Below are positions 2,824-24,000 of a DNA stretch of 64,000 bases, one piece after another. A model generated the notes under the pieces. That model saw nothing but the letters and a program-made list of their open reading frames with translations. It made no database searches and had not been told where the DNA came from. Source of the stretch: an uncultured Gemmatimonadales bacterium (GTDB lineage: Bacteria > Gemmatimonadota > Gemmatimonadetes > Gemmatimonadales > GWC2-71-9); assembly GCA_963695555.1 (NCBI GenBank), contig CAVOGR010000007.1:352001-416000 (forward strand). Direction: 5' to 3'. A program made the position numbers and the translations under genes. The stretch's first letter is position 1; every line of letters begins with the position of its first letter.

Positions 2824-3602
2824 GCGCCCTGCGATGCCCCTTCGGGCACCGGATACTCGCCCGAGGTACTCTCCGTCGAATCGATCTGCACGATGATTGC
2901 GGTAATGTTGTCGAGCCCGCCCCGGCGGTTGGCCTCGCTAATCATCTCATCGACCCACGACTGCGGTGTGCCCTCACTCTCGAGAATCCGCAAAAGGTCG
3001 GGGTCTTCCAACATCCCGGTGAGGCCGTCGGACCCGAGCAGCAGGAGATCGCCGGTATGGAGATCCCCGAAGTACACGTCGGGGACGACATCGCTGCCGG
3101 CGCCGACGCAGCGGGTGATGACGTTCGAATATGGGTGGACCCGTGCTTGATCCGGCGTCAGCAACCCCGCATCCACCTGTTCCTGCACATACGAGTGATC
3201 CTTGGTAAGCTGCAGCATCCGGCCGTCGCGCAGGAGATAGGCCCGACTGTCTCCGACGTGGCCGATGACATAGCGGCCGCTCATGAGCGCGAGCAGGGTG
3301 GCCGTCGTGCCCATGCCGCGCTTGTCCTGCTCGGTAAGGGTCCGTTCGAAAATGGCGGCGTTGGCCGCGATCATGGCACGGTGCACGCGGCGGGAGATCT
3401 CTTCGTCCGTCGTGCCGCGGAGGTTACCCACTTCCCGCGAGATGATCCCGACGGCCATCTCGCTCGCGACCTCGCCGGCGGCGTGCCCGCCCATGCCGTC
3501 CGCCACGATGAAGATCCCGCGGTCGGCGAGCATGAGGAAATTGTCTTCGTTGTCCGAGCGGACAACGCCGACATCCGAATGGGCAGCACATGAAAAACGC
3601 AT
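2820..3602 (-). CDS. PP2C-family Ser/Thr protein phosphatase
   Basis: NED, VADGMGGH, GMGTT, HVGDSRAY, SDGL and GGLDN motifs. Confidence 0.95.
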   Translation of the reverse strand: MRFSCAAHSDVGVVRSDNEDNFLMLADRGIFIVADGMGGHAAGEVASEMAVGIISREVGNLRGTTDEEISRRVHRAMIAANAAIFERTLTEQDKRGMGTTATLLALMSGRYVIGHVGDSRAYLLRDGRMLQLTKDHSYVQEQVDAGLLTPDQARVHPYSNVITRCVGAGSDVVPDVYFGDLHTGDLLLLGSDGLTGMLEDPDLLRILESEGTPQSWVDEMISEANRRGGLDNITAIIVQIDSTESTSGEYPVPEGASQGA

Positions 3603-3609
3603 GCTCGAC

Positions 3610-7066: not shown

Positions 7067-8151
7067 GCGGGCCCCGGATCCGGTTCCAGCGTGTCCGGGG
7101 CTTCGCCAATGCCACGGAGTCCACGCTGGACCCAGTGCCACAGAACGAAGAACCCGAACGCGATCGTGAAGTAACTCAGAATGAGCCGCCAGATCATGGT
7201 GTAGAGCGGCGTCATGGCAACCGGCACATAGACCGACATGACCACGGCCGAGGTGAGTTCCGCCACACCCGATGCGCCGGGGGTAGGCACGAAGTACAGG
7301 AGAAACGTGATCAGCGTTTGCACCAGCAGCACATCAACAAATTGTGCCTCGATACCGACGGCGCGGAGCGCGACGTATCCGGCCAACAACTTGTTGGCAT
7401 GGGAGGGACCGGAAATAATCGTCGCCCACAGAAGCGCGAGCCACCCGCGCGGGGTATTGAATTTCTCGACGCTCTCGTGCGCGGTATCGATGCCGGCCTG
7501 GAGCTGGGCCAGCTTGTTGGCGACCCGCGTGCTGCGCCGACCGGCGAAGATGGCGAGGCGATGGATCAGATCCCGGACGATCCGCGGGAAGATGATGATG
7601 ATGACCAGCAGCACGCCGAGCCCGGCGAAGATCCCGAGGCTGCCGAGGAAGAGATCGTACAACGACAAGCCCAGCACATTGCCCTTCTCGCCGAGGGACT
7701 TCCCCGCCCCAGAGAGAATGGCGAGCGGGCCGGCAATCGCGAAGAATGCAACCGTGGCGATGAAGGTCATGAGCGTCGCGGCCATCGCGACGGGCACCGG
7801 CACGCCGTAGCGCCGCATGGTGTAGATCATGAGCGGTGCCGCGCCCGATTGCATCGGCGTGACGTAGGCGGCCCACGCACTCATCCCGCCGGCGAGCACC
7901 ATCCCCTTGAACGGCGGATCGGGATGCAGGACCCGTGTTACGACCCACAGCCGAAGCCCGCCTCCCAGCCAATCCATTGACGCGAGACCCAAGCCCACCA
8001 CGATCCACTCCCAGTGGATTCGGGTGAGGCTCTCCAGAAAGGCGGGGATGTTGTTGCCGTAGATGAGGACTGCGATGTACCCGATCAGCGAGATCAGAAC
8101 GAAGATCTGGAATCCCCGGACCAGGAGCTTGGGCGAGAGAACACGTGCCAT
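7063..8151 (-). CDS. Lysylphosphatidylglycerol synthase TM-region / flippase-like membrane protein
   Basis: Multiple TM helices; TPMQSGA, PTPGASGVAE and IWRLILSY motifs. Confidence 0.8.
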   Translation of the reverse strand: MARVLSPKLLVRGFQIFVLISLIGYIAVLIYGNNIPAFLESLTRIHWEWIVVGLGLASMDWLGGGLRLWVVTRVLHPDPPFKGMVLAGGMSAWAAYVTPMQSGAAPLMIYTMRRYGVPVPVAMAATLMTFIATVAFFAIAGPLAILSGAGKSLGEKGNVLGLSLYDLFLGSLGIFAGLGVLLVIIIIFPRIVRDLIHRLAIFAGRRSTRVANKLAQLQAGIDTAHESVEKFNTPRGWLALLWATIISGPSHANKLLAGYVALRAVGIEAQFVDVLLVQTLITFLLYFVPTPGASGVAELTSAVVMSVYVPVAMTPLYTMIWRLILSYFTIAFGFFVLWHWVQRGLRGIGEAPDTLEPDPGPA

Positions 8152-8231
8152 GGGAGGTGGAAACGTATCGGTCCAGGGAGGCTTGCGGTAGGGTAGCTGC
8201 CCGCACCAACCCGCCGTGCTATTGTTCTTCC

Positions 8232-11063
8232 ATGGACGGCTCCGTCATTCGCATCGTGAATGCCACCCAGCACAACCTGAAAGGCATCACCGTCGACCTG
8301 CCGCATCGGCAGCTGATCGTCATTACCGGGCCGTCCGGCTCCGGCAAGAGCAGCCTCGCATTCGACACGCTCTATGCCGAAGGGCAGCGACGATACATCG
8401 AGTCGCTCTCGACCTACGCCAAACAATTCCTGGATCGCATGCCGAAGCCGGCGGTGGACCGGCTGGAGGGGCTGGCGCCCGCCGTCGCGATCGAGCAGCA
8501 CAACCCGACGGTGTCGAGCCGCTCGACCGTCGGGACAGCCACGGAAGTTTACGATTTCCTCCGGCTGCTCTGGGCCCGGATCGGGACGACCTACTGTCGC
8601 CAGTGCGACACCGCGGTGACCCAGGATACGCCCGAGTCGGCCGCCGCGGTCATCCAGGCTCGGGCCACGGGCAAGGTCCAGGTCACCTTTCCACTCCCCC
8701 CGAGCGCCCGGCCCAGTCACCAAGCTATCGTCGAGAACCTGGTGGCCCTGGGCTTCGTGCGTGCGGTCGCGGACGGTACCCCCATCGAGCTCGAGCGGTG
8801 CCCATCGGATCTCGACTTGACGGCAGTCACGGATCTCTTGGTTGTCGTGGACCGCCTCACCGTCGGGACTGCCGCGCGGGCCCGGCTCACCGAATCGATC
8901 GCGACCGCGTTCGCCGAGGGAGAAGGCGTCGCCGTCGTGCTCCACGACGATGCCAGGCTCCGCTTCACCGAGGCCCCGACGTGCAGCCGGTGCGACCTCG
9001 CCGCGAGCCCTATCACCCCGGCGCTCTTTTCCTTCAATAGCCCCCGCGGCGCCTGCGGCACCTGCAATGGATTCGGCGCGGTCCTCGAATACGACGAGAC
9101 CCTGATCGTGCCTGACCGGTCCCGCTCACTAGCCGATGGGGCGATCGACCCGTGGACCAAGCCGCGCTACGGCAGCCGGCGCCGCTTGCTGCTCACGACA
9201 GCCAAACAGCTTGGTGCCGATCCCGACCGTCCGTGGGCTTCGCTCAAGGCCGCCGCCCGCCGCCAGCTGCTCCACGGACGACAGGGACGCTACGTCGGAA
9301 TCTTTCCGTTCCTCAAAGACCTGGAGGTCAAGCGCTACAAGCAGTACATCCGCGTGTTTCTCCGACAGTATCAACTCGCGCGTGAATGTCCCAGCTGCCG
9401 GGGTGCGCGCCTCAACGAGGACGCGCTCGCCGTCAGGATCGGCCGGGACACCATCGCCGACGTGGCTGCCCGGTCCATTGACGGCATCGCCGAATGGCTC
9501 GTGGGCCTGGACCTGACGGACACGGAGCGCCAGGTGGCCCACCTGATCCTGCAGCAACTCGATGAACGGGTGAGCTTCCTGCGCGATGTGGGCCTCGGGT
9601 ATCTGACCCTGTCACGGCAGACGCGCACGCTGTCCGGCGGCGAAGCGCAACGCATCGGCCTCGCCAACGCCCTCGGCGCGCGTTTGGTCGATGCGCTGTA
9701 CGTGCTGGACGAGCCCTCGATCGGCCTCCATGCGCGCGACATCGACCGCCTGCTGGGCCTGTTGCGGCGGCTCAGGGATCACGGCAACACCGTGATCGTG
9801 GTGGAGCACGACCACACTGCCATTCAGCAGGCGGACTTCATGCTCGAGCTCGGTCCCGCCTCGGGCCAGCACGGCGGCGAAGTCGTCTACGCCGGCCCGC
9901 CCAGCGGTGCGACCGAGTCGCTCACCGGGCAATACCTGAGCGGGCGGAAGCGGATCGGAGTGCCGAGTGCCCGGCGGGTCGTCGGACCACAACGGTTGGA
10001 GGCGCGCGGGGCTCGGCTCCACAATCTCGACGGAATCGACGTCGACATTCCACTCGGCACGCTGACCGCAGTCACCGGGGTGTCGGGATCCGGCAAGAGT
10101 ACACTGGTCCACGACGTGTTGTATCGGAATCTCCAGGCCAAGATCCGGGGCGCACACTCGGCAAAGTCGCATCTGGGCGAGCCGGTGGGCGAGGTCGCAT
10201 CGCTCACGGGCTGGCAGCATCTCGACGATGTGCTTCTCATCGACCAATCTCCCATCGGACGCTCGCCCCGGTCCAACCCGATCACCTACATCCGAGCGTT
10301 CCAGGAGATCCGCGAGTTGTTCGCCGAGCAGCCGTTGGCGCGCGAGCGCGGATATTCGGCGTCGACATTCTCCTTCAATCTCCCGGAGGGGCGCTGCCCG
10401 GAGTGTGAAGGCGCGGGACACATCCGGGTGGAGATGGTGTTCCTGGCCGACGTGTTCGTGCCGTGCGACATGTGCGGCGGGGACCGCTTCAAGAAGGAAA
10501 TCCTCGACGTCACTATCCGAGGCTACTCCATTCGGGACGTGCTGCAGTGGACCGTGGACGAGGCCATCCCACGGTTCCATCACCAGCCGAAGCTCGGCGC
10601 GGCGCTCTGGCAGCTCCAACAAGTCGGCTTGGGGTACCTGACCCTGGGGCAGCCGGCGACGACGCTGTCCGGCGGCGAAGCCCAACGCCTCAAGATCGCG
10701 CGTGAGTTATTGCGGGCGAAGAAACAGGGCCGAACGCTCTACATCCTGGACGAACCGACGACGGGGCTCCATCTCGAGGACGTGCGCGTGTTGATCAAGG
10801 TGCTCGACCGACTGGTCGACGCCGGCCACACCGTGGTCGTAATCGAACATCATCTCGACGTCATCAAGCGGGCGGACTGGGTCATCGACCTGGGTCCCGA
10901 GGCCGGGCCGGGGGGCGGCAAGGTCGTGATTCAAGGTACGCCGGAGGATGTGGCCGTGGCGCCGGGCTCGCACACGGGTCGCTACTTGCACGCGGTGCTC
11001 CGCGAGCCCGAGGCTGGCCCGACTTCCGATGCTCCCCAGCGGACCATGTCCTCCGCTCGGTAG
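8232..11063 (+). CDS. uvrA: Excinuclease ABC subunit A (UvrA family)
   Basis: Two ABC ATPase domains (GPSGSGKS, GVSGSGKS, LSGGEAQR twice), zinc-finger CxxC pairs, LYAEGQRRYIESLS. Confidence 0.95.
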   Translation: MDGSVIRIVNATQHNLKGITVDLPHRQLIVITGPSGSGKSSLAFDTLYAEGQRRYIESLSTYAKQFLDRMPKPAVDRLEGLAPAVAIEQHNPTVSSRSTVGTATEVYDFLRLLWARIGTTYCRQCDTAVTQDTPESAAAVIQARATGKVQVTFPLPPSARPSHQAIVENLVALGFVRAVADGTPIELERCPSDLDLTAVTDLLVVVDRLTVGTAARARLTESIATAFAEGEGVAVVLHDDARLRFTEAPTCSRCDLAASPITPALFSFNSPRGACGTCNGFGAVLEYDETLIVPDRSRSLADGAIDPWTKPRYGSRRRLLLTTAKQLGADPDRPWASLKAAARRQLLHGRQGRYVGIFPFLKDLEVKRYKQYIRVFLRQYQLARECPSCRGARLNEDALAVRIGRDTIADVAARSIDGIAEWLVGLDLTDTERQVAHLILQQLDERVSFLRDVGLGYLTLSRQTRTLSGGEAQRIGLANALGARLVDALYVLDEPSIGLHARDIDRLLGLLRRLRDHGNTVIVVEHDHTAIQQADFMLELGPASGQHGGEVVYAGPPSGATESLTGQYLSGRKRIGVPSARRVVGPQRLEARGARLHNLDGIDVDIPLGTLTAVTGVSGSGKSTLVHDVLYRNLQAKIRGAHSAKSHLGEPVGEVASLTGWQHLDDVLLIDQSPIGRSPRSNPITYIRAFQEIRELFAEQPLARERGYSASTFSFNLPEGRCPECEGAGHIRVEMVFLADVFVPCDMCGGDRFKKEILDVTIRGYSIRDVLQWTVDEAIPRFHHQPKLGAALWQLQQVGLGYLTLGQPATTLSGGEAQRLKIARELLRAKKQGRTLYILDEPTTGLHLEDVRVLIKVLDRLVDAGHTVVVIEHHLDVIKRADWVIDLGPEAGPGGGKVVIQGTPEDVAVAPGSHTGRYLHAVLREPEAGPTSDAPQRTMSSAR

Positions 11064-11090
11064 CGGAGACACGGGGTATCGCAGCGTAAC

Positions 11091-11122
11091 AAACGAGGCG
11101 GCCTGACCTGGCCGCCTCGTTT
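11091..11122. terminator. Bidirectional rho-independent terminator between convergent uvrA and nirS
   Basis: AAACGAGGCGGCC-tgacct-GGCCGCCTCGTTT perfect inverted repeat. Confidence 0.8.
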
Positions 11123-11156
11123 GACTTCTCCGCCCTCCAGGCAGCAGCGAGACCTG

Positions 11157-13127
11157 CTAGTAGATGTCCTCCGCCGTGTTGTGGACGTTGAACTTCCCGG
11201 TGGGCGTTACCAACCAGTCGCCCTTGATCCGTCGCTTTTCCTTCAGGGTCTTATCGTCATACACCACGATCTCGCCGGCCCGGTCCCAGACGGACACCCA
11301 CACCTCGGTCCCTGCCCGGTTGAATTCGAAGTGGGTCGCGGTGCCGTGATCGGCCACGGACCAGCAACGATCGACCACGCCCTTTTGCTTGGAGTAGACG
11401 CACACCTTGCGGGCGGCTTCGGGATCGTTGTTGAGCGGCATGTCGAACCACACCCACGGTGAGTTCGCGTGGGTCTTGAGGAACAGGCTGCCGGTGCCGT
11501 CAAGCGGAACCTGCCGCACCACCTTCCAGGCGTGCTCCGGGTGATTCGCGGGATCGGCGCCGTACACCGCCAGGAGGCCCTGGCCGATGTGCGTCGTGCC
11601 GTTGACCCAGCCGTACTCCGGATCCTGCCAGTTGGCGCCCCGGCCCGGGTGGGGTTTGATGCCGGTCTCGAAGGTGGTCACCAGCTTCTGCTCCTGGACG
11701 TCGATGACCGCCATCTTGTTTTCCATGTTGGCCGCGACCAGGAAATACCGACCGGTGTGGTCCCAGCCGCCGTCATGGAGGAACCGCTCGGCGGGAATGC
11801 GCGACACCACCGGAAAACCCTGCTTCGAGTAATCGACGATGGCCACGTGCCCCGATTCCTTGAGCGCCACGACCCACACCGGATCGGTATGGGACGCGAT
11901 GATGGCCGCCACCCGGACCTCCGCGAGCGGTTCATCGGTGCGGATCGCGTTCCCTTCGACACCGGTGACGGACAGCGGCTCGAGGGTCAGTCCATCGTAG
12001 ACAACGAATTGAGTCGGCCAATAGCAGCCTTCGATCAAGTACCGGTCCTCGTACCCCTTGTACTTGCTGCCTTCGACGCTCCGCGCATCGATGCACCCCT
12101 GCGCCTGGGCGACCAGCGAGGGCTCCTTGCTCCAGAGATCGATCAGCGTCACACGGCCATCGCGCCCGACCGCATAGAAATACCGGCCGGTGGACGAGGA
12201 GCGCAGGATGTGCACCGCGAAGCCGGTGTTGATCACCGACACCAGTTCGTAGGTGTCGCCGTCGAGGATGGCGACCTTTCCGGCGTCACGCAGGATCACG
12301 CCGAAGAAGTTCTCCCAGTTGCGCTTGGTCTGGGGTGAGGTTGGCCGGTCCTTGACCGGAATGCGCAGCTCCCAACTGTTCCGGATTTCCGACAGCGGCT
12401 TGGCCGGCGGCGCCGGCGGCTCGAGCTGCACGTACTTGGCCATCAGTTCGATTTCTTCGGCCGAGAGCACACCCGACAATCCCCAGGCAGGCATCCCGCC
12501 TGGCGTGCCGCTCGTGAGGATGGCCTTGAGCGCCGAGGTGCCAATCTGAGTGGTGCGCGCAGGCTGGATGTTCGGGCCGGTGGCCCCGGCGCGCAGCGTG
12601 CCGTGGCAGCCGGCGCAGCGGTCGAAGAAGATGCGTTGGCCCTGCTTGAACTCGGCCTCCGACAGCTCGACCGGGCCGGTATCCTCAACCTCACGGCCCT
12701 CAACTTCTCCCATGCTCACGAGCTGGATGTACTCCAGCACCTGACCGATCTCGTCGCGCGACAAATTTGGCGGAGACATCGGGACCTTCCATTCCGCCAA
12801 GAGGGCTTTGCCGATGGAATCGTCTTTCGCCATGCCGAGCGGGTCCTCCATCCAGCGGACCAGCCACTCGCCGGTTCGCCGCTCATGCACGTTCTTCAGG
12901 TCCGGTCCCACCCGAGGTCCTTCACCGATCGAGTGACAGGCGAAGCACGAACGGTCGAAGATGGCCTGGCCCGGGTGGGTCGAGGCGATCTTGCCCTCGG
13001 GGAGGACCAACGCCTGGTCCTGGGCTGCGCGATCCGACTTGCACCCTGACATGGAGACGAGCGCCGCGAGTGCGACGCACACCGAGACCGGCAGGAGCCT
13101 TGGGAAGTACCGTGTTCCAGCGTGCAT
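11157..13127 (-). CDS. nirS: Cytochrome cd1 nitrite reductase; lipoprotein with an extra N-terminal cytochrome c domain
   Basis: CAGCH..GATG c-domain; d1-domain His motifs VHILR, LHDGGWD and PHPGRG; C-terminal TPTGKFNVHNT..DIY; extra CFACH domain; lipobox MSGC; GGAGG SD. Confidence 0.93.
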   Translation of the reverse strand: MHAGTRYFPRLLPVSVCVALAALVSMSGCKSDRAAQDQALVLPEGKIASTHPGQAIFDRSCFACHSIGEGPRVGPDLKNVHERRTGEWLVRWMEDPLGMAKDDSIGKALLAEWKVPMSPPNLSRDEIGQVLEYIQLVSMGEVEGREVEDTGPVELSEAEFKQGQRIFFDRCAGCHGTLRAGATGPNIQPARTTQIGTSALKAILTSGTPGGMPAWGLSGVLSAEEIELMAKYVQLEPPAPPAKPLSEIRNSWELRIPVKDRPTSPQTKRNWENFFGVILRDAGKVAILDGDTYELVSVINTGFAVHILRSSSTGRYFYAVGRDGRVTLIDLWSKEPSLVAQAQGCIDARSVEGSKYKGYEDRYLIEGCYWPTQFVVYDGLTLEPLSVTGVEGNAIRTDEPLAEVRVAAIIASHTDPVWVVALKESGHVAIVDYSKQGFPVVSRIPAERFLHDGGWDHTGRYFLVAANMENKMAVIDVQEQKLVTTFETGIKPHPGRGANWQDPEYGWVNGTTHIGQGLLAVYGADPANHPEHAWKVVRQVPLDGTGSLFLKTHANSPWVWFDMPLNNDPEAARKVCVYSKQKGVVDRCWSVADHGTATHFEFNRAGTEVWVSVWDRAGEIVVYDDKTLKEKRRIKGDWLVTPTGKFNVHNTAEDIY

Positions 13128-13180
13128 ATGTCGAACCTCCGAGGTGGTTGACCTCCCGCAGGAGGCCTGCGATGCAGTTC

Positions 13181-15337
13181 CTAGAAACCGAACGACCAGG
13201 CAAACGTGATGCTCCGCTTCGGCTCCGGCCGGAAGAACCCAACGTTGGGCGCTTCGGCGTAGAGCGTGTTGGTCAGATTGGTCACCGAGACGGCGAGTTG
13301 CTGACGGCCCAGCGACAACCCTCCATGCAGGCCGTGCACGGTAAATGACGGGATGACATCACCGACCGGGCTGGCTGCTAACTCGACGTCGTCGCGCCGT
13401 CCGTTGTGCCGAACGGCATACTCGACCCAGTATCGCCCATCCGGGCGGGCATAGCGCACCGTCGCGGTGAGTTTGCTCGAGTAGCCGTCGCCCAACGGCA
13501 CGTTCGGGTCGCCGACCGTCCGGGGGGACAAGTGGGAGTAGCCTGTCCCGAGCGTCACACGATCGCCCAATCGCACGGTCGCCGCCAACTCGATGCCGGT
13601 GATGCGCAGCTGGTCGATATTGATGTTCTGGAACTCGGTGACCCCGTTTACTTGATTGCCCGTCGGTGTGATCCGGATGGCGTCGTGCACCGTATTCCGG
13701 AAGACGAATCCCTCCACATACACCGGTCCGGATCGGAACCGCAGTCCGACTTCGGTGTTGAGGCTGGTTTCGGCATCGAGATCGAGGTTTCGTATCCAGA
13801 ACCCTCGGCCTTCCGGTGATGGACCGTTGAAGAAGCGCTCGACCAGATTGGGCGACCGGAAGGCGCGACCCACGGTAGCCACCACGCTCAGCTCAGCCGT
13901 CGCCCGGTAGAGCACGCTCGCCGAGCCCACCACGTTTCGATCGGTGTCGACGAACAGCGGATCGGTCAGACCCGGTGTCGTCCGTGTCGAGGCCCGCACG
14001 TCCTGGTACCGGCCGCCGACGATCAGGTCGGCCCGAGGGCTCAGGCTCACGGCCAGCTGAACGAAACCGCCGAGGCTCCGGAAGGTCGCGTCCGGGAGCC
14101 GCGGCGTGCCGCGGATGGTCGGACTCGGTGGCCCGGTCCCGAGGACCGTGGTGATGGTGGTGTCGGTGTTGCGCGAATTGTCTCGATAGAGATCGACCCC
14201 GTAGGTCACCAGATGGCGGCCGCCGACCAGCTTCTTGAACTCGGCGCGGAATCCGTAGGTCGCGATGTCCGTGAAGTTCCGGCTTTGGATGCTGACGCCG
14301 GCCCCGGCCGGGGCCGGCTGGGGGAAGGGCGAGAACACATTGGTATGGAACTCACGCTCGTTGTCTTGCAGGTATGCCGAGACCTCGAGACCGTCGAACG
14401 GCCCGACCCCAAGGTCGGCGCCTCGGTACCCGGCCGTGTAGCGCTCGAATCGTTGCGACGGGAAGAGCAGCTGAACCGTGGAGAGACCTGCCCCCAAGAC
14501 GCTGGGATCAACCAAGCCGAACCCCGCCTTCTCAGCCCGATAGCGATCGTACTTGGCAAAGACATCGTGTCGGGACGAGAGCCGATAGGCGACGGAGCCG
14601 CTCACGGAATAGTCTTCGACCCCGGTATCCTGGACCCGGGTGTTACCCGCCAGGGCCACGAGGCCGAACCGGCCGCCTGGCGCCTCGTACGGATCCGCCG
14701 TTCGATAGCTGCCGGTAAGGCGGAACGACACCGGGCCCGACCCGCCAAACAGGGTCGCGGCGGGCCGGCTCTGATTGTCGACCGTGCTGTACCGGTAGGA
14801 GACCTTCCCGTGAACCACCGTGCCGCGCGCCGCCAGGGGCGGGCCGCGGGTGATGAGGTTGATCACTCCCCCGATGGCGTCGGACCCATAGAGCACGGAG
14901 GACGCCCCCCGAACGATCTCGATCCGGTCCAGGGTGGATACGTCCACCAGCGCGGGGATCTCACCGGAGTCCTGGCGGCGACGCGAGTTGTTCAGCCTGA
15001 GCCCATCCTCCAACACGAGAATGCGCTGACCTTGGAGCCCGCGAATAATCGGTTGCCGCTGGGTGGTGCCAACACCGTCCAGGTCGAGGCCGGGCACCTC
15101 GAGGAAGAGATCCGCGGCACTATTGGGCTGCCGCTCGCGGAGGAGCGCCGAGTCCAACACCGTGACCGACATCGGCGTGTCGAACCCAAGGCGCGGGTCC
15201 CGGGTCGCCGTCACATTGAGATCGCGAACGCGGTAGGCCTCGTTGATGGTCTGCGCCGGGGCGAAGCCGGGAATTGCCAGAGTCAGCATGGCCAATACCA
15301 GCAACCAGCGTCCCAACGCCACCCGGCTCGGCCGCAT
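13181..15337 (-). CDS. TonB-dependent outer-membrane receptor, heme-receptor-like
   Basis: Signal peptide, plug motif (RIEIVRGASSVLYGSDAIGGVINLIT), FRSP and NLDL..ETS loop motifs, C-terminal Phe. Confidence 0.9.
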   Translation of the reverse strand: MRPSRVALGRWLLVLAMLTLAIPGFAPAQTINEAYRVRDLNVTATRDPRLGFDTPMSVTVLDSALLRERQPNSAADLFLEVPGLDLDGVGTTQRQPIIRGLQGQRILVLEDGLRLNNSRRRQDSGEIPALVDVSTLDRIEIVRGASSVLYGSDAIGGVINLITRGPPLAARGTVVHGKVSYRYSTVDNQSRPAATLFGGSGPVSFRLTGSYRTADPYEAPGGRFGLVALAGNTRVQDTGVEDYSVSGSVAYRLSSRHDVFAKYDRYRAEKAGFGLVDPSVLGAGLSTVQLLFPSQRFERYTAGYRGADLGVGPFDGLEVSAYLQDNEREFHTNVFSPFPQPAPAGAGVSIQSRNFTDIATYGFRAEFKKLVGGRHLVTYGVDLYRDNSRNTDTTITTVLGTGPPSPTIRGTPRLPDATFRSLGGFVQLAVSLSPRADLIVGGRYQDVRASTRTTPGLTDPLFVDTDRNVVGSASVLYRATAELSVVATVGRAFRSPNLVERFFNGPSPEGRGFWIRNLDLDAETSLNTEVGLRFRSGPVYVEGFVFRNTVHDAIRITPTGNQVNGVTEFQNINIDQLRITGIELAATVRLGDRVTLGTGYSHLSPRTVGDPNVPLGDGYSSKLTATVRYARPDGRYWVEYAVRHNGRRDDVELAASPVGDVIPSFTVHGLHGGLSLGRQQLAVSVTNLTNTLYAEAPNVGFFRPEPKRSITFAWSFGF

Positions 15338-15388
15338 CGGAGTCGAGCGAGCCGAACTCGGCCCCGGCAGAGGGAATCCCGTCAACAC

Positions 15389-16582
15389 TCAGAAGGCCGC
15401 GTTCAGCATGATGTAGACCCACGTCATATTCTCGCCCAGCCGGCCGATCTCGCTGAAGGCGTCGGCGGCAAACACGTACGACAGCCCGCCGGTGAACGAC
15501 AGGTTGGGGCTGTAGCGGTAGCTGCTCGTGAGGTCGAGCTCTTCGCCCAGGTGTTTGGTGCTGAAGAGGCCCTGCTTGGCGAGGTGGAAGGAATGCAGGT
15601 CGGCCGCGAGGGTCAGGTCATCGCGTAGCGCGTACGATCCCTTGAGCGCGATGTCCTGCAGGCCGAGGCCGGCCGTGTGGGCCGGAATGTCGAGAAACAG
15701 GTCGGCGAAGCCGTAGAACTTGTGGTTGGTGGCGAACAGGGTGCTGAAGACCTTGGTCTTCCCATCGCCCGGATCGTCGTCGCCCGACAGATAGTCGTAC
15801 CAGGCGGTGACCTGCCCCTTCCCGTCGGCGAAGCGAGTGCCCGCGCGCGCACCCAGCATGAAGGCGGATACATCAACGCCGGCTCGATCGCCGGTTTGAA
15901 CGTAGAGCTCGCCGCGGTAGATGACGCCTGACCTTTCCCCGGCCAGTCGCGCCCCGAGGGTGCCTTGGTTGGTGTTGGCCAGCGTGGCCTCGACGTGGTC
16001 ATAGAGAGCGTAGAGCTCGAGCGTCCCGCCCGCGACGTTCTTGACCTCGCCGATGGCACCGATGAATGCCCCGTCATTCGGCACCGCCGGCGAGGTTGCA
16101 TCGGACAGCTGGTACCCGAATACCGTCACCCCGCCCCACCCGCTGCCGCCATAGAGGCGGACGCCGTCGAACGCGCGGCCCTGCTGGGTCCAATCGACCG
16201 CCCCGATGAGGCGCTGGCCGCCCGCGTTCATCTCTTGCCGCCCGACTCGCACCATGCGGTGCTTGTCTTTGCTGGCGAGCTCGATGAAGCCTTGATGGAG
16301 ATCGAAGTTGTCCGCCTCGAAATCGGCGAGCGTGCTCGACTCTTCGCCCCAGATTCGTACATCTTGCAACTCGACGAACACCCGGACATCGCGCTTCAGC
16401 GTGGCGTCGACGTGCGCGCGAACCCGCATGGACGTAAAGGCGTCGTCGTCACCACCCACTGGCTCTCGATACTCGGTGCGCGGACGTACTTGCGCGCCGA
16501 AGGTGGCCTCTTGAGCGACGGCGACGCTCGTGAGGCACATGGTGCAGGTCAGCGACAGGGCGAGGACGGGCTGGACTCTCAT
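15389..16582 (-). CDS. Outer-membrane beta-barrel, alginate-export (AlgE-like) family
   Basis: Signal peptide, RVGRQEM..G.QRLIG...W.Q.GRAFDG, ATNHKFYG, C-terminal Phe; GAGGA SD. Confidence 0.8.
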   Translation of the reverse strand: MRVQPVLALSLTCTMCLTSVAVAQEATFGAQVRPRTEYREPVGGDDDAFTSMRVRAHVDATLKRDVRVFVELQDVRIWGEESSTLADFEADNFDLHQGFIELASKDKHRMVRVGRQEMNAGGQRLIGAVDWTQQGRAFDGVRLYGGSGWGGVTVFGYQLSDATSPAVPNDGAFIGAIGEVKNVAGGTLELYALYDHVEATLANTNQGTLGARLAGERSGVIYRGELYVQTGDRAGVDVSAFMLGARAGTRFADGKGQVTAWYDYLSGDDDPGDGKTKVFSTLFATNHKFYGFADLFLDIPAHTAGLGLQDIALKGSYALRDDLTLAADLHSFHLAKQGLFSTKHLGEELDLTSSYRYSPNLSFTGGLSYVFAADAFSEIGRLGENMTWVYIMLNAAF

Positions 16583-16635
16583 GGCAATCCTCGAAATGGA
16601 GGCGTCGGCTCCACGGGAAAGTACCGCCAAATTCT

Positions 16636-16659
16636 AAATCGGACAAGTTTGTCATATTT
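16636..16659. promoter_or_regulatory. Candidate operator palindrome upstream of the porin-TBDR-nirS operon
   Basis: AAAT-cg-GACAA-gt-TTGTC-at-ATTT dyad in an AT-rich patch. Confidence 0.55.
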
Positions 16660-16761
16660 TGACCGGCCGTGAGTAAATCTTTCGTTAAATGACTAGGAAA
16701 GATCCTTCACGATTGACTCGAATGCCGAGTTGGCTTGTGCTGGACCCTGCGAACCACCGGG

Positions 16762-18801
16762 CTACGTGAGCAGCTGCTTCGCCTCTTCGATGGCGTGCTC
16801 CGCCCCGCTCAAGGCGAGCAGGTCACCCTCGAGGAGCGTCTCGGTGGCCTTGGGGAACACGATCCGGTCCTCGCCCCGGCAGAGCGCCACCACGGTGGCG
16901 CCCGTCATCCCACGGACATTCAACTGGGCCAGTGACTTCCCGGCCGCGGGACTCCCGGCACGGATGGTGAGTGGCGTCAAGCTGCCGAGTTCCGGCGCCA
17001 GCCGGCGTACCTCATCGAGGGCGGACGGACGCTCGCCGCTGACCTGGCGGGCCAGGGCGTGGACCACCATGCCGGCGGTGGCGCGCACGTGACCCTCGAG
17101 GTTCCGGGCCGACTGCCAGAACGCCGCCCCGAACAGCACGAGCGCGACGACCAGGACGGCGAGGCCGCCATAGGTCGGCAAGAAGGGCTGGGTAACCGCG
17201 ACCAGCGGGGCACCGACCAGGAGGATGATGAAGATCTCGAGCGTCACCAAGAGCGCCCGCCGCGGGGCGAGCCCCAGGTCCACCTTCCCTCGCTCCACCA
17301 TGGGGAAGGCGCTCGTGGCCAGAGTATGCGCCAGCGACCGGGACGACCGTACCAATCCGATGAGAAAGGGAAAGGCGAGTGCCAGGGCGGCGGCAACAAC
17401 GACGAGACGACCGATCACGACACCCATGGCAAGTGACCGGGCGAGGATCGGTAGAACGTGCGGCAGCGCCACGGACGTGCCGGCGATAATGCCGGCAATG
17501 ATGGTGGCGTCGATCAAGATGTACCCGGTCAGACGCCGGATGCGGCCCCGAGGCGTGGTGCTCCGGGGGGCATTCCGCAGGGCCTCGACCCACGAGCCGT
17601 ACAGGGTAGCGTAGGTCTGGAGTGGCTTGGGCAGCCGGCGGTCGACATAGGCGCCCGCCCTATCGGAGAAGGCAATCATCCACGGCGAGCCGAACGCGGT
17701 GAGCACCGAGACGGCCACTGCCACCGGATAGAGGAATTCGCTCGTGGCGCCACTCACGGCGCCCACCCCGGCGATGATGAATGAGAACTCGCCGATCTGA
17801 GTCAGTGTCATGCTGGTGCGGACGGAGGTCCTGGTGTCGAACCCGGCGAGGAATGCGCCGACGCTCACGCCGAGGATCTTTCCGGTCATTACTACACCGG
17901 TGAGCAGCACGACCGCGCCCCAGTTCTCGAAGATCAACCGCTGATCGATGAGCATGCCGACGGCAACGAAGAAGATGGCGGCAAACATGTCCCGCACCGG
18001 CCGGATCAATTCTGCCACCGGCCGGGACGAGCCGGACTCGGCGACGAGCGAGCCCGCGAGGAAGGCGCCGAGTGCCACGGAAAATCCAGCCGCACTCGCG
18101 AGGAGCGCGACGGCGAAGCAGAGCCCGACGCTTGCCACCAGCGTGGTTTCCGGTTTTCGAAGTCGCACGATGGCGCGCATCGCGCGTGGCACGACAAGAA
18201 TGCCCACCACCAGGAGTCCCACCAAGAACGCAACCAGGCTGCCGAGGGTGGTGGCAAGCGTGCCGGTCGAGAGCCCCGCCCCGGTCGCGACCGCGGTGAG
18301 AATCGCGATGAGGAGAATCGCCGCCAGATCCTCGACGATCAGAATGCCGAACACCAGGTCCGAATGGGAGCGCGGAACCTCGCGCTCGGCGAATACCTTG
18401 GCGATGATCATGGTACTCGAAATGGCCACGATGGCGCCGGCGAAGATGCTATCGACCGTACCCCAGCCTAGCAGCTGGCCTGCCAAATACCCCAGGGAGA
18501 GCATGAGCCCGACTTCGATCACGCCGACCAAGCCGGCCGTCGGGGCGAGCCGTGCCAACTTGTGGAGGTTGAAGTCGAGCCCGAGCGAGAACATGAGGAG
18601 GATGACCCCGAGCTCCGCCAGGGTCCGGATGCTCTGGGGATCGCCGACCAGCGTGGTGGGCGAATGCGGCCCGATGACTAGACCGGCCAGCAGGTAGCCC
18701 AGGACCACCGGCAGCTTGAGCCGGTGGAACACCACCGTAATGATGGCGGCCACGCCGAGGACTGCGGTGAGATCGCCGAGAAAAGCCGGCAGGTGTTCCA
18801 T
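16762..18801 (-). CDS. CPA2 cation:proton antiporter with C-terminal TrkA-C/RCK domain
   Basis: LAELGVILLMFSLGLDF, ILIVEDL, LGAFLAG, RDMFAAIFF and QIGEFSFI motifs. Confidence 0.92.
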   Translation of the reverse strand: MEHLPAFLGDLTAVLGVAAIITVVFHRLKLPVVLGYLLAGLVIGPHSPTTLVGDPQSIRTLAELGVILLMFSLGLDFNLHKLARLAPTAGLVGVIEVGLMLSLGYLAGQLLGWGTVDSIFAGAIVAISSTMIIAKVFAEREVPRSHSDLVFGILIVEDLAAILLIAILTAVATGAGLSTGTLATTLGSLVAFLVGLLVVGILVVPRAMRAIVRLRKPETTLVASVGLCFAVALLASAAGFSVALGAFLAGSLVAESGSSRPVAELIRPVRDMFAAIFFVAVGMLIDQRLIFENWGAVVLLTGVVMTGKILGVSVGAFLAGFDTRTSVRTSMTLTQIGEFSFIIAGVGAVSGATSEFLYPVAVAVSVLTAFGSPWMIAFSDRAGAYVDRRLPKPLQTYATLYGSWVEALRNAPRSTTPRGRIRRLTGYILIDATIIAGIIAGTSVALPHVLPILARSLAMGVVIGRLVVVAAALALAFPFLIGLVRSSRSLAHTLATSAFPMVERGKVDLGLAPRRALLVTLEIFIILLVGAPLVAVTQPFLPTYGGLAVLVVALVLFGAAFWQSARNLEGHVRATAGMVVHALARQVSGERPSALDEVRRLAPELGSLTPLTIRAGSPAAGKSLAQLNVRGMTGATVVALCRGEDRIVFPKATETLLEGDLLALSGAEHAIEEAKQLLT

Positions 18802-18999: not shown

Positions 19000-19929
19000 T
19001 CAGTTCCCCCCGCCGCGAAGGGCCCGGTACGTAATCTCCGACAGCGTCGCAATCAGCTTCGACGACACGGCGTGGTCCTCGATCCCGCGCACCAGGACGA
19101 CCAGCACGTAGGGCGGCCCGCCGTCGGGGTACACGATCGCGGCGTCGTGGTCGATCGCGGTGATCCACCCGGTCTTGTGGGCTACCCGGGTACCTGCGGG
19201 CAGCCCGGCCGGAATCCCCTCGTTGAACTCCTGCTGCTCGAGAATCGCCAGCATGTCGGCGGTGGCTGACTCATCGGCAGCCCGCCCCTCAGCCAGCGCC
19301 GTGAGGATGGCGCCAAGGTCCCGAGCGGTGGTGGTGTTGCTCAGTCCCGCCCGGTAGGCCTTCAGGTCCTCGACCCCGCGCAAGACTTCGATCGAATCGG
19401 CCCCCAATTCGCGCATGGTCGCGGTTACGCGTCGGGCATCGGCAAGCTCGATCAGGATGTTGGTAGCGAGGTTGCTGGACCGCGTGATCATCAGGTCGAT
19501 CAGTTCGCGGGCCGGCACCGCCGATCCGACCTTCAGATACAGGGTCGAGTCGCTGTCGGATGCCGGGTCGATGTCATACAACGATCCGTCGGCGATCGAG
19601 CGGAAGGTCATCCCGATCGGCACGGGTTGGTCGATGTCGAAGCGCCCGGCCTCCGCGTCGCGGAACAGTTGGATCATGACGGGCACCTTCATGGTGCTCG
19701 CGGCATGCATGCGGAGGTCGGCGTTGATGAGGACGGTGGCACCGGTGGCGAGGTGTCGGAAATACACGCCAACCTCCGCGTCGCTCGCGGCGATGGGCTC
19801 CGACAGGGCTTCGGTGAGCGCTGCGGCATCGAAAGACTTGGTGACGGTACACCCCATGACGAGAGAACACAGCACCAGTGACAGTCGCGGACCGATGAGC
19901 CCGCGACATCCGGGCCGCGTCCCGTTCAA
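19000..19929 (-). CDS. Class A beta-lactamase-like serine hydrolase, probable lipoprotein
   Basis: STMK (SxxK), SSN (SxN) and HKTG motifs; lipobox-like VMGC; inferred TTG start overlaps the upstream stop. Confidence 0.85.
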   Translation of the reverse strand: MNGTRPGCRGLIGPRLSLVLCSLVMGCTVTKSFDAAALTEALSEPIAASDAEVGVYFRHLATGATVLINADLRMHAASTMKVPVMIQLFRDAEAGRFDIDQPVPIGMTFRSIADGSLYDIDPASDSDSTLYLKVGSAVPARELIDLMITRSSNLATNILIELADARRVTATMRELGADSIEVLRGVEDLKAYRAGLSNTTTARDLGAILTALAEGRAADESATADMLAILEQQEFNEGIPAGLPAGTRVAHKTGWITAIDHDAAIVYPDGGPPYVLVVLVRGIEDHAVSSKLIATLSEITYRALRGGGN

Positions 19930-21023
19930 TGCCAGATGCCGGGAATGCGCGCGCTGCAACTGGGGCAGAGGCCCTCCGCGGTCACGCGATTGCGGCGCAC
20001 CAAGTAACCGGAGCGCTCGATCAACCGATCGCCGCAGTCGGGGCAGTCGGTGTGCTCCCACGACCCGACGCGCCCGGCGAGGTTCCCGGCGTAGACGTAG
20101 CGCAGGCCGGCCTCCTTGCCGATCTCGCAGGCCTGGAGCAGCGCACCGACCCGGGTCCGACGACAGTCCGCCATCCGGTACTCGCCGTGGAACGCGGTCA
20201 CGTGCCACGGGATATCGGGCGATACCGAGGCGATGAACCGTGCCGCGTCACCAAGTTCCACGGGATCGTCGTTGAACCCCGGAACCACGAGGGTGACGAT
20301 CTCCAGCCAAAACCCCAGTTCGTGCACCATCCGGATGCCGTCCAGCACGGACGAGAGGACGCCCCCCAGCTTCCGGTAGGCGGAATCCGACATCGACTTG
20401 AGATCGATCTTGTAGCAATCGGTAACGGGACGGATGTACTCCAGGGCCTCGCGGGAACAGTTCCCGTTCGAGACGAATGCCGTCTTCAATCCCTGGGCCT
20501 TGGCGCGGCGGAACACCTCGACCGCCCACTCCGCCGTGATCGACGGCTCGTTGTAGGAGGACGTCACCATCGGGGCGCCCGACTGCCGGGCCAGCAGAAC
20601 CAGCTCACGGGCACTCACGATGGTCGGGCTCGTTCCCGCCGACTCGTCCCGGATCGCCTGCGACGTGAGCCAATTCTGACAATAGCCGCAGTGGAAGTCG
20701 CAGCCGAGCATGCCGAACGTGAGGGTGTCGCAACCTGGCAGGACGTGGTAGAACGGCTTCTTTTCGATAGGGTCGGTGTGCAGGCCGGCGATGTAGTTGG
20801 CCGGCGCATACAGCCTGCCGGCGCGGTTGAATCGCACCTGGCAGATGCCGCGTCGGCCAGGGCGGACGAGGCAGCGGTGGGCACACGCGAGGCATCGGAC
20901 TGCCCCGTCCGCCTCCCGGCGAACCAGCTCGGCGGGCCGGACGAAGGAATCGAGCAGCTCGGCGAGCCGAACCGACCGCGGCCGGGTGCGGAAGACGTCT
21001 TCGGAAGGAGCACCACGAGCCAT
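19926..21023 (-). CDS. amrS: AmmeMemoRadiSam-system radical SAM enzyme
   Basis: CLACAHRC, DPIEKKPFYH, CDFHCGYCQNW, C-terminal CPDC and CPSC; AAGGAGG SD. Confidence 0.88.
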   Translation of the reverse strand: MARGAPSEDVFRTRPRSVRLAELLDSFVRPAELVRREADGAVRCLACAHRCLVRPGRRGICQVRFNRAGRLYAPANYIAGLHTDPIEKKPFYHVLPGCDTLTFGMLGCDFHCGYCQNWLTSQAIRDESAGTSPTIVSARELVLLARQSGAPMVTSSYNEPSITAEWAVEVFRRAKAQGLKTAFVSNGNCSREALEYIRPVTDCYKIDLKSMSDSAYRKLGGVLSSVLDGIRMVHELGFWLEIVTLVVPGFNDDPVELGDAARFIASVSPDIPWHVTAFHGEYRMADCRRTRVGALLQACEIGKEAGLRYVYAGNLAGRVGSWEHTDCPDCGDRLIERSGYLVRRNRVTAEGLCPSCSARIPGIWH

Positions 21024-21094: not shown

Positions 21095-24000
21095 ATGTCG
21101 CTCTCAGGCTTCCACCCCGCCGTCGCCCGCTGGTTCACCGACGCCATCGGCGAGCCAACCCACGCCCAAGAACGGGGGTGGGAGGCCATCCGCAAGGGGC
21201 AGAACACGCTCATCGCGGCCCCGACCGGCTCCGGGAAGACCTTTGCCGCGTTCCTGAACGCCCTGGATCAGCTGTGCCGGGAAGGCCTGGAGCAGGGCCT
21301 CCCGGACGAGGTCCGGGTGGTCTACGTCTCACCGCTCAAGGCGTTGAGCGCCGATATCCACAAGAACCTGGTCGAGCCGCGCGAGGGCATCGCCGAAACG
21401 GCGCTTCGCATGGGGCTCGAGCCGGTGAAGACTACCGCTGCAGTTCGAACGGGCGACACGACCAGTGCGGCGCGCGCCGCCATGCTCAAGCGCCCGCCGC
21501 ACATTCTGGTGACGACGCCCGAGTCGCTCTACCTGCTGCTCACCGCCAAGCGCAGCCGCGAAATGCTCCGCACAGTGCGGACGGTCATCGTGGACGAGAT
21601 CCACGCCGTGGTCCAGTCGCGCCGCGGCTCGCACTTGGCGCTCAGTCTCGAACGGCTCGAGCACGTTACGGGTGGGTCGCTCCAGCGTATCGGCCTCTCG
21701 GCGACGCAGCATCCGATCGACCAGGTCGCGCGATTCCTGGTCGGCATCCGGCCGGATGGTACAGCACGGGAATGCACCGTGGTCGATGAAGGACACCGCC
21801 GGGCACTCGATCTGGCCCTCGAGTTGCCAGGCTCGCCGCTCGAATCGGTCATGTCGCACGAAGTGTGGGAAGAGGTATTCGACCGGCTCGCCCAGCTCAT
21901 CGAGGAACACCGCGTCACCCTCGTCTTCGTCAACACCCGCCGCCTGGCGGAACGGGTCGCACGCGATCTCGAGAAACGGTTGGGAGGGGACGCGGTCACC
22001 GCGCACCATGGGAGCCTGGCCAAGGAAGCCCGGCTCGATGCGGAACAGCGGCTCAAGGAAGGCCGGCTCAAGGCCCTCGTTGCGACGGCGTCACTCGAAT
22101 TGGGCATCGACATCGGCTATGTCGACCTGGTGTGCCAGCTGGGCTCCCCGCATTGGATCTCGACCCTGCTCCAGCGAGTGGGCCGCTCGGGGCATACCAT
22201 CCGCGGTACACCGAAGGGCCGCCTGTTCCCACTCACCCGCGACGACTTGATCGAATGTACGGCGCTCGTTCGCGCGGTGGGCGAGGGCGAGCTGGACCGG
22301 ATCGTCATTCTCGAGCGGCCCCGCGACGTCTTGGCTCAACAAATCGTGGCCGAAGCAGCCAGCGAGGACTGGAACGAAGCAGCGCTGTTCGACCTGGTGC
22401 GCCGGGCCTATCCCTATCGCGCGCTCGAGCGAAGGGAATTCGACAACATCGTACGCATGGCAGCCGAGGGGTTTACCACCCGCCGGGGCCGCCGGGGGGC
22501 GTTGCTGCACTACGATGGAGTGAACGGAACGATTCGGGGCCGGCGCGGAGCCCGGATGCTGGCGATCACGTCAGGCGGGGCCATCCCCGACAACGCCGAC
22601 TATCGGGTGATCCTCGAGCCGGAAGACACCTTCATCGGCACCCTCAACGAAGACTTCGCCGTCGAGAGCATGGCGGGTGACATCTTTCAGCTGGGGAACA
22701 CGTCCTGGCGCATCCTCCAGATAGGCCCCGGCATCGTCCGAGTAGCGGACGCCAGGGGAGAGCCGCCGAACATTCCATTCTGGTTCGGGGAAGCGCCGGC
22801 GCGGAGCGCTGAATTATCTCAGGCGGTTGCTCGGCTGCGTGCCGACATCGAGCCGCAGCTCCACGATGCGGACGCCGCCGTCGTGTGGCTCGTGGACCGT
22901 GTCGGCATCTCGCAGGCCGCGGCCCATCAAATCGTGCACTACCTGGCGGATGCCAAGCGATTGCTCGGCCTTCTCCCGACCCAGGAAACCCTCATTCTCG
23001 AGCGATTCTTCGATGAATCGGGCGGCATGCAGCTGGTACTGCACGCACCATTCGGCAGCCGAGTGAATCGGGCGTGGGGACTGGCACTGCGGAAGAAGTT
23101 TTGCCGCTCCTTTAACTTCGAATTGCAAGCCGCGGCCACCGAGGAAGGCGTGCTCTTGTCGCTGGGGCCGCAGCATTCCTTCCCGTTGGATGACGTGTTC
23201 CGCTATCTCCATCCGCGCACACTGCGCGACACGCTGATCCAGGCCCTCCTCGACTCGCCGATGTTCCCAACTCGGTGGCGGTGGAACGCCACCATCTCGC
23301 TCGCGGTGCTCCGTCAGCGCGCCGGCCGGCGGACTCCGGCGCCACTCCAGCGAATGGAAGCGGACGACCTCATGGCCGCGGCCTTTCCCGACGCGGCCGC
23401 CTGTCTCGAGAACATCGCCGGGGACCGGGAAATCCCCGACCACCCGCTGGTGCAGCAGACCATCGAGGACTGCCTGACCGAGGCGATGAACCTTCCCGAG
23501 TTGGTCCCGATCATCGAGCGCATTTTTGCGGGCGACATCGCGTGCGTCTCGCGCGACACCCCTGAGCCCTCGGTTCTCTGTCATGAAATCCTGAACGCGC
23601 GTCCGTACGCCTTCCTGGACGACGCCCCGCTGGAGGAACGCCGCACCCAGGCCGTCTATACCCGCCGCGCCACCGAGCCGTCGAGCGCAAGGGACCTGGG
23701 CGCCCTGGATACGGAGGCCATCGGCCGCGTCAAGGACGAAGCGTGGCCGGATCCTCGCGACGCCGATGAGCTGCATGATGCCCTCATGCAATGCGGCTTC
23801 GTCACCGCGCAGGAAGGGAAGGACAGTAGGGACTCGTGGGGGCCGCTGTTCCAAGAGCTGGCAGCAGCGGGTCGCGCGACCGAGGTCACGATTGCCGATG
23901 GAGGCCACCGATCCGCAATTAGGTGGTGGGTCGCAACCGAGCGGGTGCCGGAAGTCCGGGCGATCCATGTCGTACAGCTCGAACCAGCGGTGTCGGTTCC

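Follow-up and report, generated by a model that had tools for sequence, protein, structure and literature searches.

BtuB is the TonB-dependent transporter for cobalamin, and classical haem receptors carry axial histidines (or a histidine and a tyrosine) at the apex of the plug and, in loop L7, between the FRAP and NPNL boxes. PqqU is described, in the part of PMC12124388 consulted, as a TonB-dependent importer that lets non-producers scavenge pyrroloquinoline quinone (PQQ). NirS, the nitrite reductase of the cytochrome cd1 type, is usually supplied with haem d1 by the cell's own nirFDLGHJE(N) genes; in the excerpt of PMC3694632 that we used, haem d1 is bound to NirS non-covalently and in the periplasm. 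Here we analyzed a 64-kb stretch of DNA (the window; G000:C7:352001-416000) from a metagenome-assembled genome (MAG) of a Gemmatimonadales bacterium of sediments, in which nirS forms a unit with genes for a TonB-dependent receptor and an AlgE-like porin. Haem d1 synthesis genes were found neither in this genome nor in any other nirS-bearing genome of our survey, and the receptor belongs to a branch that, among the surveyed genomes, occurred only in nirS-bearing ones. Judged from sequences and a structural model, it is an even call whether this receptor brings haem d1, or dihydro-haem d1, into the periplasm, where NirS would take it up.

NirS and the tetrapyrrole pathways

The source genome (G000) is 3.57 Mb in length and consists of 14 contigs, with an estimated completeness of 87.1% and contamination of 0.08%. 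The three genes of the unit are:

15389..16582, minus strand: Alginate_exp (AlgE-like) porin (PF13372, 120.3 bits against a cut-off of 25.2)
13181..15388, minus strand: TonB-dependent receptor, a member of the nirS-linked clade within a haem-type family resembling PhuR (Pfam Plug and TonB_dep_Rec_b-barrel domains; trees)
11157..13127, minus strand: NirS, cytochrome cd1 nitrite reductase with an extra N-terminal cytochrome c domain (Pfam)

The encoded NirS, 656 amino acids (aa) long, consists of two cytochrome c domains and a full Cytochrom_D1 domain (PF02239 positions 2-368 of 368, 363.8 bits), and scored 524 bits against the NirS structures of Pseudomonas aeruginosa (1nir/5guw). Its AVH motif (proximal histidine) and its FLHDGGWD and PHPGRGAN motifs (distal histidine pair) aligned with those of P. 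aeruginosa NirS; the roles of the proximal and distal histidines in the d1 pocket are given in the portion of PMC8756737 consulted. A total of 401 Gemmatimonadota genomes were surveyed, including four unpublished ones (G057, G097, G157, and G182) on which no specific claim depends. Ten of them, with completeness of 87-98%, carry nirS: G000, G023, G109, G149, G176, G206, G232, G279, G333, and G387. The three motifs, both CxxCH sites, and GRDGR were invariant in all nine full-length NirS orthologs of the phylum, among which the identity of the D1 domain was 73-96%. By its sequence, the NirS of this locus is a canonical, conserved cd1 enzyme, predicted to reduce nitrite to nitric oxide (NO) with bound haem d1. 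A lipobox (LVSMSGC) was found in it, and a lipobox-like signal was present in eight of the nine orthologs, G387 being the one without; Gemmatimonadota NirS is probably membrane-anchored. In G023, a sister species (L047, G023:C3:8000-27999), nirS is split into two open reading frames (ORFs) by a break near residue 439, and the receptor gene is broken near residue 688.

The first-pass annotation of this DNA had recognized no haem d1 gene in the window. This was borne out, and profile searches and tblastn found none in the rest of the assembled genome either. In the PF02239 search of G000, NirS was the sole strong match, hence there is no NirF or NirN; the best NirJ match (TIGR04051) reached 50 bits against a cut-off of 515, and the siroheme decarboxylase domain (PF17805) and SUMT (TIGR01469) gave no matches. 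NirD, L, G, H, and E of Pseudomonas mandelii had no tblastn match in G000, and NirF and NirN matched nirS only. The gap extended to all ten nirS-bearing genomes: a second strong D1-domain protein (NirF/NirN), NirJ above its cut-off, PF17805, and SUMT were each absent from every one, the next-best D1 match anywhere in the 401 genomes having an E-value of 9e-12. The positive controls responded: PF17805 and SUMT were recovered on the P. mandelii nir plasmid (4/4 and 1/1, respectively), and SUMT in 13 of 14 named control genomes. Nor did any homolog of nirD, L, G, H, J, or E lie within 5-10 kb of nirS in 15 loci (9 from genomes and 6 from metagenomes). The usual source of haem d1 for a cd1 NirS, a nirFDLGHJE(N) set of its own, was therefore found neither in G000 nor in the other nine genomes.

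What the annotation had overlooked is that the deficiency is much wider, with hemA-E, ferrochelatase, and SUMT missing as well, so that the organism appears as a general tetrapyrrole auxotroph. Seeds from the same phylum (hemA, hemC, hemB, hemE, hemN, and hemY from the haem cluster of G279; hemA, hemD, hemB, hemE, and hemN from G333) revealed no match for hemA, B, C, D, or E in G000, while the control seeds ribF and truB from the same G279 locus matched at 52% and 45% identity, respectively. Within the limits of a MAG, G000 cannot make uroporphyrinogen III and therefore has no known route to haem b, sirohaem, or haem d1; haem b must therefore be imported too. ALAD and ferrochelatase were both absent from seven of the nirS-bearing genomes, including G000 and G023 (98% complete, 10 contigs), and both present in G279 and G333; G387 encoded ferrochelatase only.

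The cell might nevertheless make haem d1 with genes lying in unassembled parts of the MAG or belonging to an unknown pathway. The incompleteness of G000 leaves room for such genes, and G109 encodes a radical S-adenosylmethionine (SAM) enzyme resembling NirJ2 and AhbD that scored 297 bits, below the cut-off of 500. We consider this explanation scarcely credible, since five independent markers are each missing from ten of ten genomes, the nearly complete G023 among them, with positive controls; the precursor pathway hemA-E is missing too, and no nir gene was seen near nirS in the 15 loci. The absence of d1 genes would also be accounted for if NirS worked without haem d1, holding scavenged haem b or another tetrapyrrole in its propeller or serving a function other than nitrite reduction, with the receptor supplying that molecule. 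A title in the reference list of PMC3694632 does speak of the apo-enzyme being reconstituted with other haem groups in vitro. However, the residues that hold or flank haem d1 in P. aeruginosa NirS are all invariant here, which is hard to reconcile with a different cofactor and makes this possibility improbable.

The G109 enzyme is a radical SAM/SPASM protein (L048:1336-2763, in G109:C3) nearest to NirJ2 and to the haem b synthase AhbD (297 and 287 bits, respectively; cut-offs 500). It adjoins a protein with a BchB C-terminal-like stretch, and the genome lacks ALAD and ferrochelatase; the protein may modify a scavenged tetrapyrrole. Weaker relatives are encoded in G149, G387, and G206; G000 and G023 have none. 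Another radical SAM gene, located near nirS in G206 (L041:12723-13937), was ruled out as NirJ; its best score was 51.6 bits, to HpnH.

Although hemA-E, ferrochelatase, and SUMT are missing from it, G000 encodes, besides NirS, three haem-copper oxidases. Two divergent subunit I genes (L232, G000:C2:87425-91786, and L231, G000:C12:68713-73065), each beside a gene for a small CuA-type subunit II, scored 63.7 and 144 bits against CtaD (cut-off 671) and are candidates for unusual oxidases or NO reductases. NosZ was not identified in G000 (best TIGR04246 score 34 bits), and tblastn searches of this genome at 1e-5 with NosZ and NosD of P. mandelii and with NorB and NorC of Thermus gave no match. Across the survey, ALAD was not found in 136 of the 401 genomes, most of which are more than 90% complete, and was present in 265; tetrapyrrole auxotrophy looks common in Gemmatimonadota, and this absence of ALAD stands independently of how the receptor is read.

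A nirS-linked branch of haem-type receptors

The receptor gene stands directly beside nirS in eight of the ten nirS-bearing genomes (G000, G023, G109, G149, G176, G206, G333, and G387) and in 7 of 80 metagenome loci. The seven homologs have 47-89% identity with the receptor of G000, and the eight genomes belong to at least five genera. The orientation of the two genes varies, being convergent in G109, G149, G176, and G206, which argues for selection on proximity and not mere inheritance of one operon. In G232 and G279, no linked receptor was found within 10 kb of nirS. Adjacency in eight of ten genomes exceeds chance. The linked clade occurs in 8/10 genomes with nirS and in 0/391 without it. 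Neither an inner-membrane transporter nor a haem-degrading gene adjoins the unit in the window or its counterparts in the neighborhoods compared (20 kb around each of the other nine nirS genes).

In a receptor tree of 53 rows, obtained by a quick IQ-TREE run, the eight nirS-adjacent receptors made up one side of a branch with a support of 100 in the Shimodaira–Hasegawa-like approximate likelihood ratio test (SH-aLRT). When every remaining family match from the 401-genome search was added (81 rows), support for the linked branch was 99, and none of the 73 other rows fell inside it. The tree grew to 122 rows with metagenome loci that an alignment of the eight nirS-linked receptors had retrieved; the branch, again with a support of 99, then had 16 members, 15 of them nirS-adjacent. 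The neighbors of the sixteenth, L142, are not visible because its contig measures just 3.4 kb, and none of the 106 rows outside the branch was nirS-adjacent. Two metagenome rows (L121 and L146) duplicate the genome rows of G206 and G176, respectively, and contribute nothing. Under the midpoint root, the linked branch is nested within the receptor family, which is what a paralog arising through duplication would show.

The annotation had also overlooked that the receptor has paralogs, its family being common among those ALAD-less Gemmatimonadota that have no nirS. Members with 42-57% identity were found in at least 73 of the 401 genomes, counted from the two best candidates per genome, and most of these genomes lack nirS; one homolog not beside nirS, L008, is 44% identical. 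The family was present in 56 of the 136 genomes without ALAD versus 17 of the 265 with it, and 80 of the 328 genomes without the receptor lack ALAD; since relatives among them are non-independent, the Fisher p-value is given no weight. The family thus tracks the loss of haem synthesis. All seven ALAD-less genomes with a linked copy also have a copy of the general clade, full-length in G000 (C1:364239-366287), G023, G109, G149, G176, and G206, and a fragment at a contig end in G387. Only about 3 kb separate the linked copy from the general one, next to which are its kinase and regulator, in G109, G149, and G176. G333, a haem prototroph (ALAD and ferrochelatase present), has a linked copy and no general copy. 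A difference in ligand between the two clades would be expected to produce such a two-copy pattern.

General-clade copies (G000:C1:364239-366287; L078-L117) usually occur in a conserved module, in which a GAF/HisKA_3 histidine kinase of ~592 aa and a ~220-aa response regulator of the LuxR type are followed by the receptor and by a ~235-aa membrane protein. The latter has no Pfam family, except for a weak HisKA_7TM match in one of five, and appeared in a protein atlas in unnamed clusters only. In G000 and G023, the last gene of the module is replaced by genes for a 129-132-aa protein of no known family and a Pyr_redox_2 protein. A response regulator with an HD_5 domain is encoded between the two receptors in G109 (L039:10724-11803) and G149 (L042:5904-6983).

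The receptor itself is a protein of 735 aa, possibly starting at M17, with Plug and barrel domains, a signal peptide, and a TonB-box-like DLNVTAT. The best of 32 NCBIfam TonB-receptor models were TIGR01786 (228.3 bits, cut-off 323.75) and TIGR01785 (217.1 bits, cut-off 316.85), while the siderophore and B12 models gave 145 and 107 bits, respectively. An AlphaFold (AF2) model built from 62 sequences had 22 barrel strands, a predicted local distance difference test (pLDDT) value of 88.1, and a predicted template modeling (pTM) score of 0.89. Foldseek matched it best to the haem receptor PhuR (8the, E-value 1.3e-50, template modeling score 0.80), followed by the copper transporter OprC (E-value 9.2e-42) and by ChuA and ShuA (about 4e-40 to 4e-38), with siderophore receptors close behind. 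The receptor may bind and transport haem, to which the enrichment of its family in ALAD-less genomes points indirectly. The FRSP and NLDL motifs, in which the annotation had seen a resemblance to the FRAP/NPNL loop of haem receptors, are present as FRSP and NLDLDAETS without a histidine between them; they do not count as evidence for haem binding, because FRSP and NL/NP-D-L motifs are common to both paralog clades, and neither has a conserved histidine there.

Missing histidine ligands, scores below the haem-receptor cut-offs, and the closeness of OprC and siderophore receptors in the fold search would all suit a receptor for a non-tetrapyrrole, an iron chelate or a metal, set beside nirS by shared regulation under low oxygen or iron demand. 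We attach little probability to such a ligand: the best profile and the best structure both belong to haem receptors, the family follows the loss of ALAD, and the linked clade is strictly tied to nirS.

At twelve positions the linked clade stands apart, with a conservation of at least 85% inside it and at most 10% sharing outside. According to the model, five of them are located in extracellular loops (R426 and R430 in L5; S524, R528, and W531 in L7). Haem d1 has more carboxylate groups than haem b, and the three extra arginines in the outer loops would suit it, a point that is suggestive only.

The main competing explanation is a different division of labor, in which the linked receptor imports haem b (or any haem) as a second copy co-expressed with nirS, and haem d1 arrives from elsewhere, e.g., through a promiscuous general receptor. 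An auxotroph switching to nitrite respiration would need extra haem for the two c-haems of NirS, and G000 has no hemA-E, ALAD, or ferrochelatase. Genomes without ALAD are enriched in this haem-type family, the general paralog is all that G232 and G279 have, and that paralog shares the locus in G109, G149, and G176. Yet this would not explain where a strongly conserved cd1 enzyme obtains its d1, and the confinement of the linked clade to nirS-bearing genomes, its distinct extracellular-loop residues, and the retention of the linked and not the general copy by the haem prototroph G333 all speak against haem b. On balance, we find this explanation rather unlikely.

Layout of the unit, porin, and flanking sequence

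The description of three co-oriented, closely spaced genes, closed by a terminator and preceded by an AT-rich dyad region, proved accurate in the first-pass annotation. The minus-strand ORFs, with Pfam identities as listed above, are separated by gaps of 0-48 bp and 53 bp. The porin ORF was listed as 15389-16630 (413 aa) with a TTG start at 16630; the start is likely the ATG at 16582, which would be followed by a normal signal peptide. Two elements flank the unit:

11090..11123, minus strand: hairpin 3' of nirS, likely the intrinsic terminator of the three-gene unit (fold and sequence)
16583..16762, minus strand: non-coding region upstream of the porin gene, candidate promoter/operator (sequence)

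The hairpin has a 14-bp stem, a folding free energy (dG) of -34.9 kcal/mol, and a z-score of -5.85, equaled by none of 200 shuffles; a simple terminator scan overlooked it because its T run is weak. The 180 nt upstream of the porin gene have a GC content of 0.51 against about 0.65 in the window and contain a GTCA-N5-TGAC dyad at 16651-16663. This dyad block is kept only in very close relatives, G023 (L047) and L149, and was not found upstream in more distant loci. A sigma-70 promoter scan of the region upstream of the porin gene gave no match, and no clear FNR- or NsrR-type box was seen there by eye. No riboswitch, cobalamin or other, was found in the window, where the only Rfam matches were two tRNAs.

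In an estuary RNA library (X7), contigs (records 28 and 29) of a relative about 92% identical span the three genes and run across both junctions. They were not counted as evidence of expression, as DNA may occur in such libraries, and a two-gene contig does not show a single transcript. Parts of the window were present in 20 sequencing runs, none of which reached half of the sampled words.

Homologs of the porin occur beside nirS in G023, G387, G206, and G279, which with G000 makes five of the ten nirS-bearing genomes. In the window, the neighbors of the porin gene are the receptor gene, nirS, and a gene for a CPA2 antiporter, and no alginate biosynthesis or export operon is present. The porin may be an anion channel for nitrite. 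In G279, it is encoded between nirS and a molybdopterin oxidoreductase (L045:12659-16119) that has a fused 4Fe-4S/DmsC-like subunit. No paper linking an alginate-export porin with nitrite or denitrification was found in our literature search.

Other genes around nirS differ between the genomes. Divergent from nirS are, in G333, a 1151-aa protein in which a molybdopterin oxidoreductase is fused with a class-V aminotransferase (L046:12239-15694) and, in G149, an Rrf2-family regulator (L042:12090-12503). Elsewhere in the window are encoded a triple-FHA protein adjoining a PP2C phosphatase (2820-5181), a UvrA-like ABC ATPase (8145-11063, 972 aa), a class A beta-lactamase-family protein (19000-20208, 402 aa), and an Lhr-type large helicase (21095-25441, 1448 aa).

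Proposed haem d1 import and the known systems

The core idea of the annotation, that the adjacent receptor supplies haem d1 to NirS, agrees with the conserved adjacency, the nirS-specific branch, and the absence of d1 genes from all ten assemblies; the ligand, its handover to NirS, and the nitrite channel are what we infer from this gene content, linkage, and clade structure. The three genes would form a nitrite-respiration unit in a bacterium unable to synthesize any tetrapyrrole. Apo-NirS would be exported by Sec and receive its haem c in the periplasm. The receptor would be a specialized paralog, split from the general haem-type receptors of the lineage, that takes up what other denitrifiers release, haem d1 or dihydro-haem d1, and passes it across the outer membrane, while the general paralog (G000:C1:364239-366287) would supply haem b. 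In the periplasm, the cofactor would bind directly to lipid-anchored, semi-apo NirS, and neither an inner-membrane transporter nor NirF or NirN would be needed.

In vitro reconstitution of the apo-enzyme with haem d1 has been reported (Hill & Wharton 1978; Weeg-Aerssens et al. 1991). Taken together with the non-covalent binding of haem d1 in the periplasm, this means that a periplasmic cofactor could load NirS without a cytoplasmic step, which fits a lone outer-membrane transporter with no adjacent ATP-binding cassette (ABC) importer or haem oxygenase and no NirF or NirN. In its broadest form, the proposal is that haem d1 is an exchanged public good: an auxotrophic Gemmatimonadota lineage would pirate the cofactor of NirS via a dedicated receptor, duplicated from a haem b receptor, and its lipid-anchored NirS would load without NirF and NirN. 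We put this forward tentatively, with our confidence falling a little short of even.

Several points weigh against haem d1 import. The linkage would have an equally simple explanation if the gene encoded a second receptor for haem b under nitrite control, and the proposal presupposes free haem d1 in sediments. The receptor scores under both haem/haemoglobin receptor cut-offs, and neither clade has a histidine reaching 85% conservation in the plug or L7, the only conserved one being H685 of the linked clade. G232 and G279 combine nirS with the general paralog alone and likewise lack d1 genes; therefore, the linked clade is not indispensable. The frameshifts of nirS and the receptor gene in G023 may be sequencing errors or real decay in this 10-contig assembly. 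All genomes are MAGs, relatives among them are non-independent, and G000 itself is only 87% complete. The family search, run at E <= 1e-80, scored two best candidates per genome; the receptor trees were midpoint-rooted, without an outgroup, and came from quick IQ-TREE or FastTree runs; and the extracellular loops were assigned via strand counting in the model, without coordinates.

In our literature searches, with supplements left out, nothing on uptake of haem d1 or on auxotrophy for it came up; the papers retrieved on TonB, nirS, and haem d1 were all on Pseudomonas regulation. If true, haem d1 import would be the first case of uptake of this cofactor and the first denitrification step dependent on a cofactor made by other community members. 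NirS maturation would be possible without NirF and NirN. Counts of nirS in soils and sediments would have to be reread, as the gene would not imply an autonomous denitrifier. Haem and haem d1 would suggest themselves as media supplements for uncultured Gemmatimonadota, and the two paralogous receptors would be a natural pair for studying changes of tetrapyrrole specificity in TonB-dependent transporters.

Compared with the canonical nirSMCFDLGHJEN cluster (P. mandelii plasmid, L061; P. aeruginosa, PMC3694632), the NirS of this locus is 46% identical and has the same catalytic and d1-binding motifs. In contrast to that cluster, there are no genes for d1 synthesis or insertion here, and the receptor and porin genes replace the nir accessory genes; NirS has, in addition, an extra cytochrome c domain and a lipobox. 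Two cytochrome c domains before the D1 propeller are also found in C1-C2-NirS of Chloroflexi, to which the enzyme was compared by architecture only. This architecture is called unique to Chloroflexi in the part of PMC8756737 available to us; it is not confined to them, being present in all nine full-length Gemmatimonadota NirS.

With the haem receptors PhuR, ShuA, ChuA, and HasR, the receptor shares the Plug domain and 22-strand barrel, TIGR01786/TIGR01785 as best profiles, and PhuR as the best fold. It differs from them in an identity of only ~20%, in scores under the cut-offs, in having no conserved histidine in the plug apex or L7, and in the absence of an hmu/phu ABC transporter or haem oxygenase nearby. 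It is a divergent haem-type TonB receptor that fails two defining tests, the cut-off score and the histidine ligands. Unlike PhuR-type receptors, its branch goes with a periplasmic enzyme that uses haem d1 and not haem b as its cofactor. BtuB, in its role for cobalamin, is a parallel in mechanism. The nearest mechanistic parallel is PqqU, as far as the consulted part of PMC12124388 describes it, although its ligand is another one and its sequence is distant (rank 30 in the fold search; 44.9 bits with NCBIfam). PqqU too serves to scavenge a complex cofactor across the outer membrane, and the enzymes using PQQ are periplasmic, so that crossing the outer membrane suffices, as it would on the proposed route of haem d1 to NirS.

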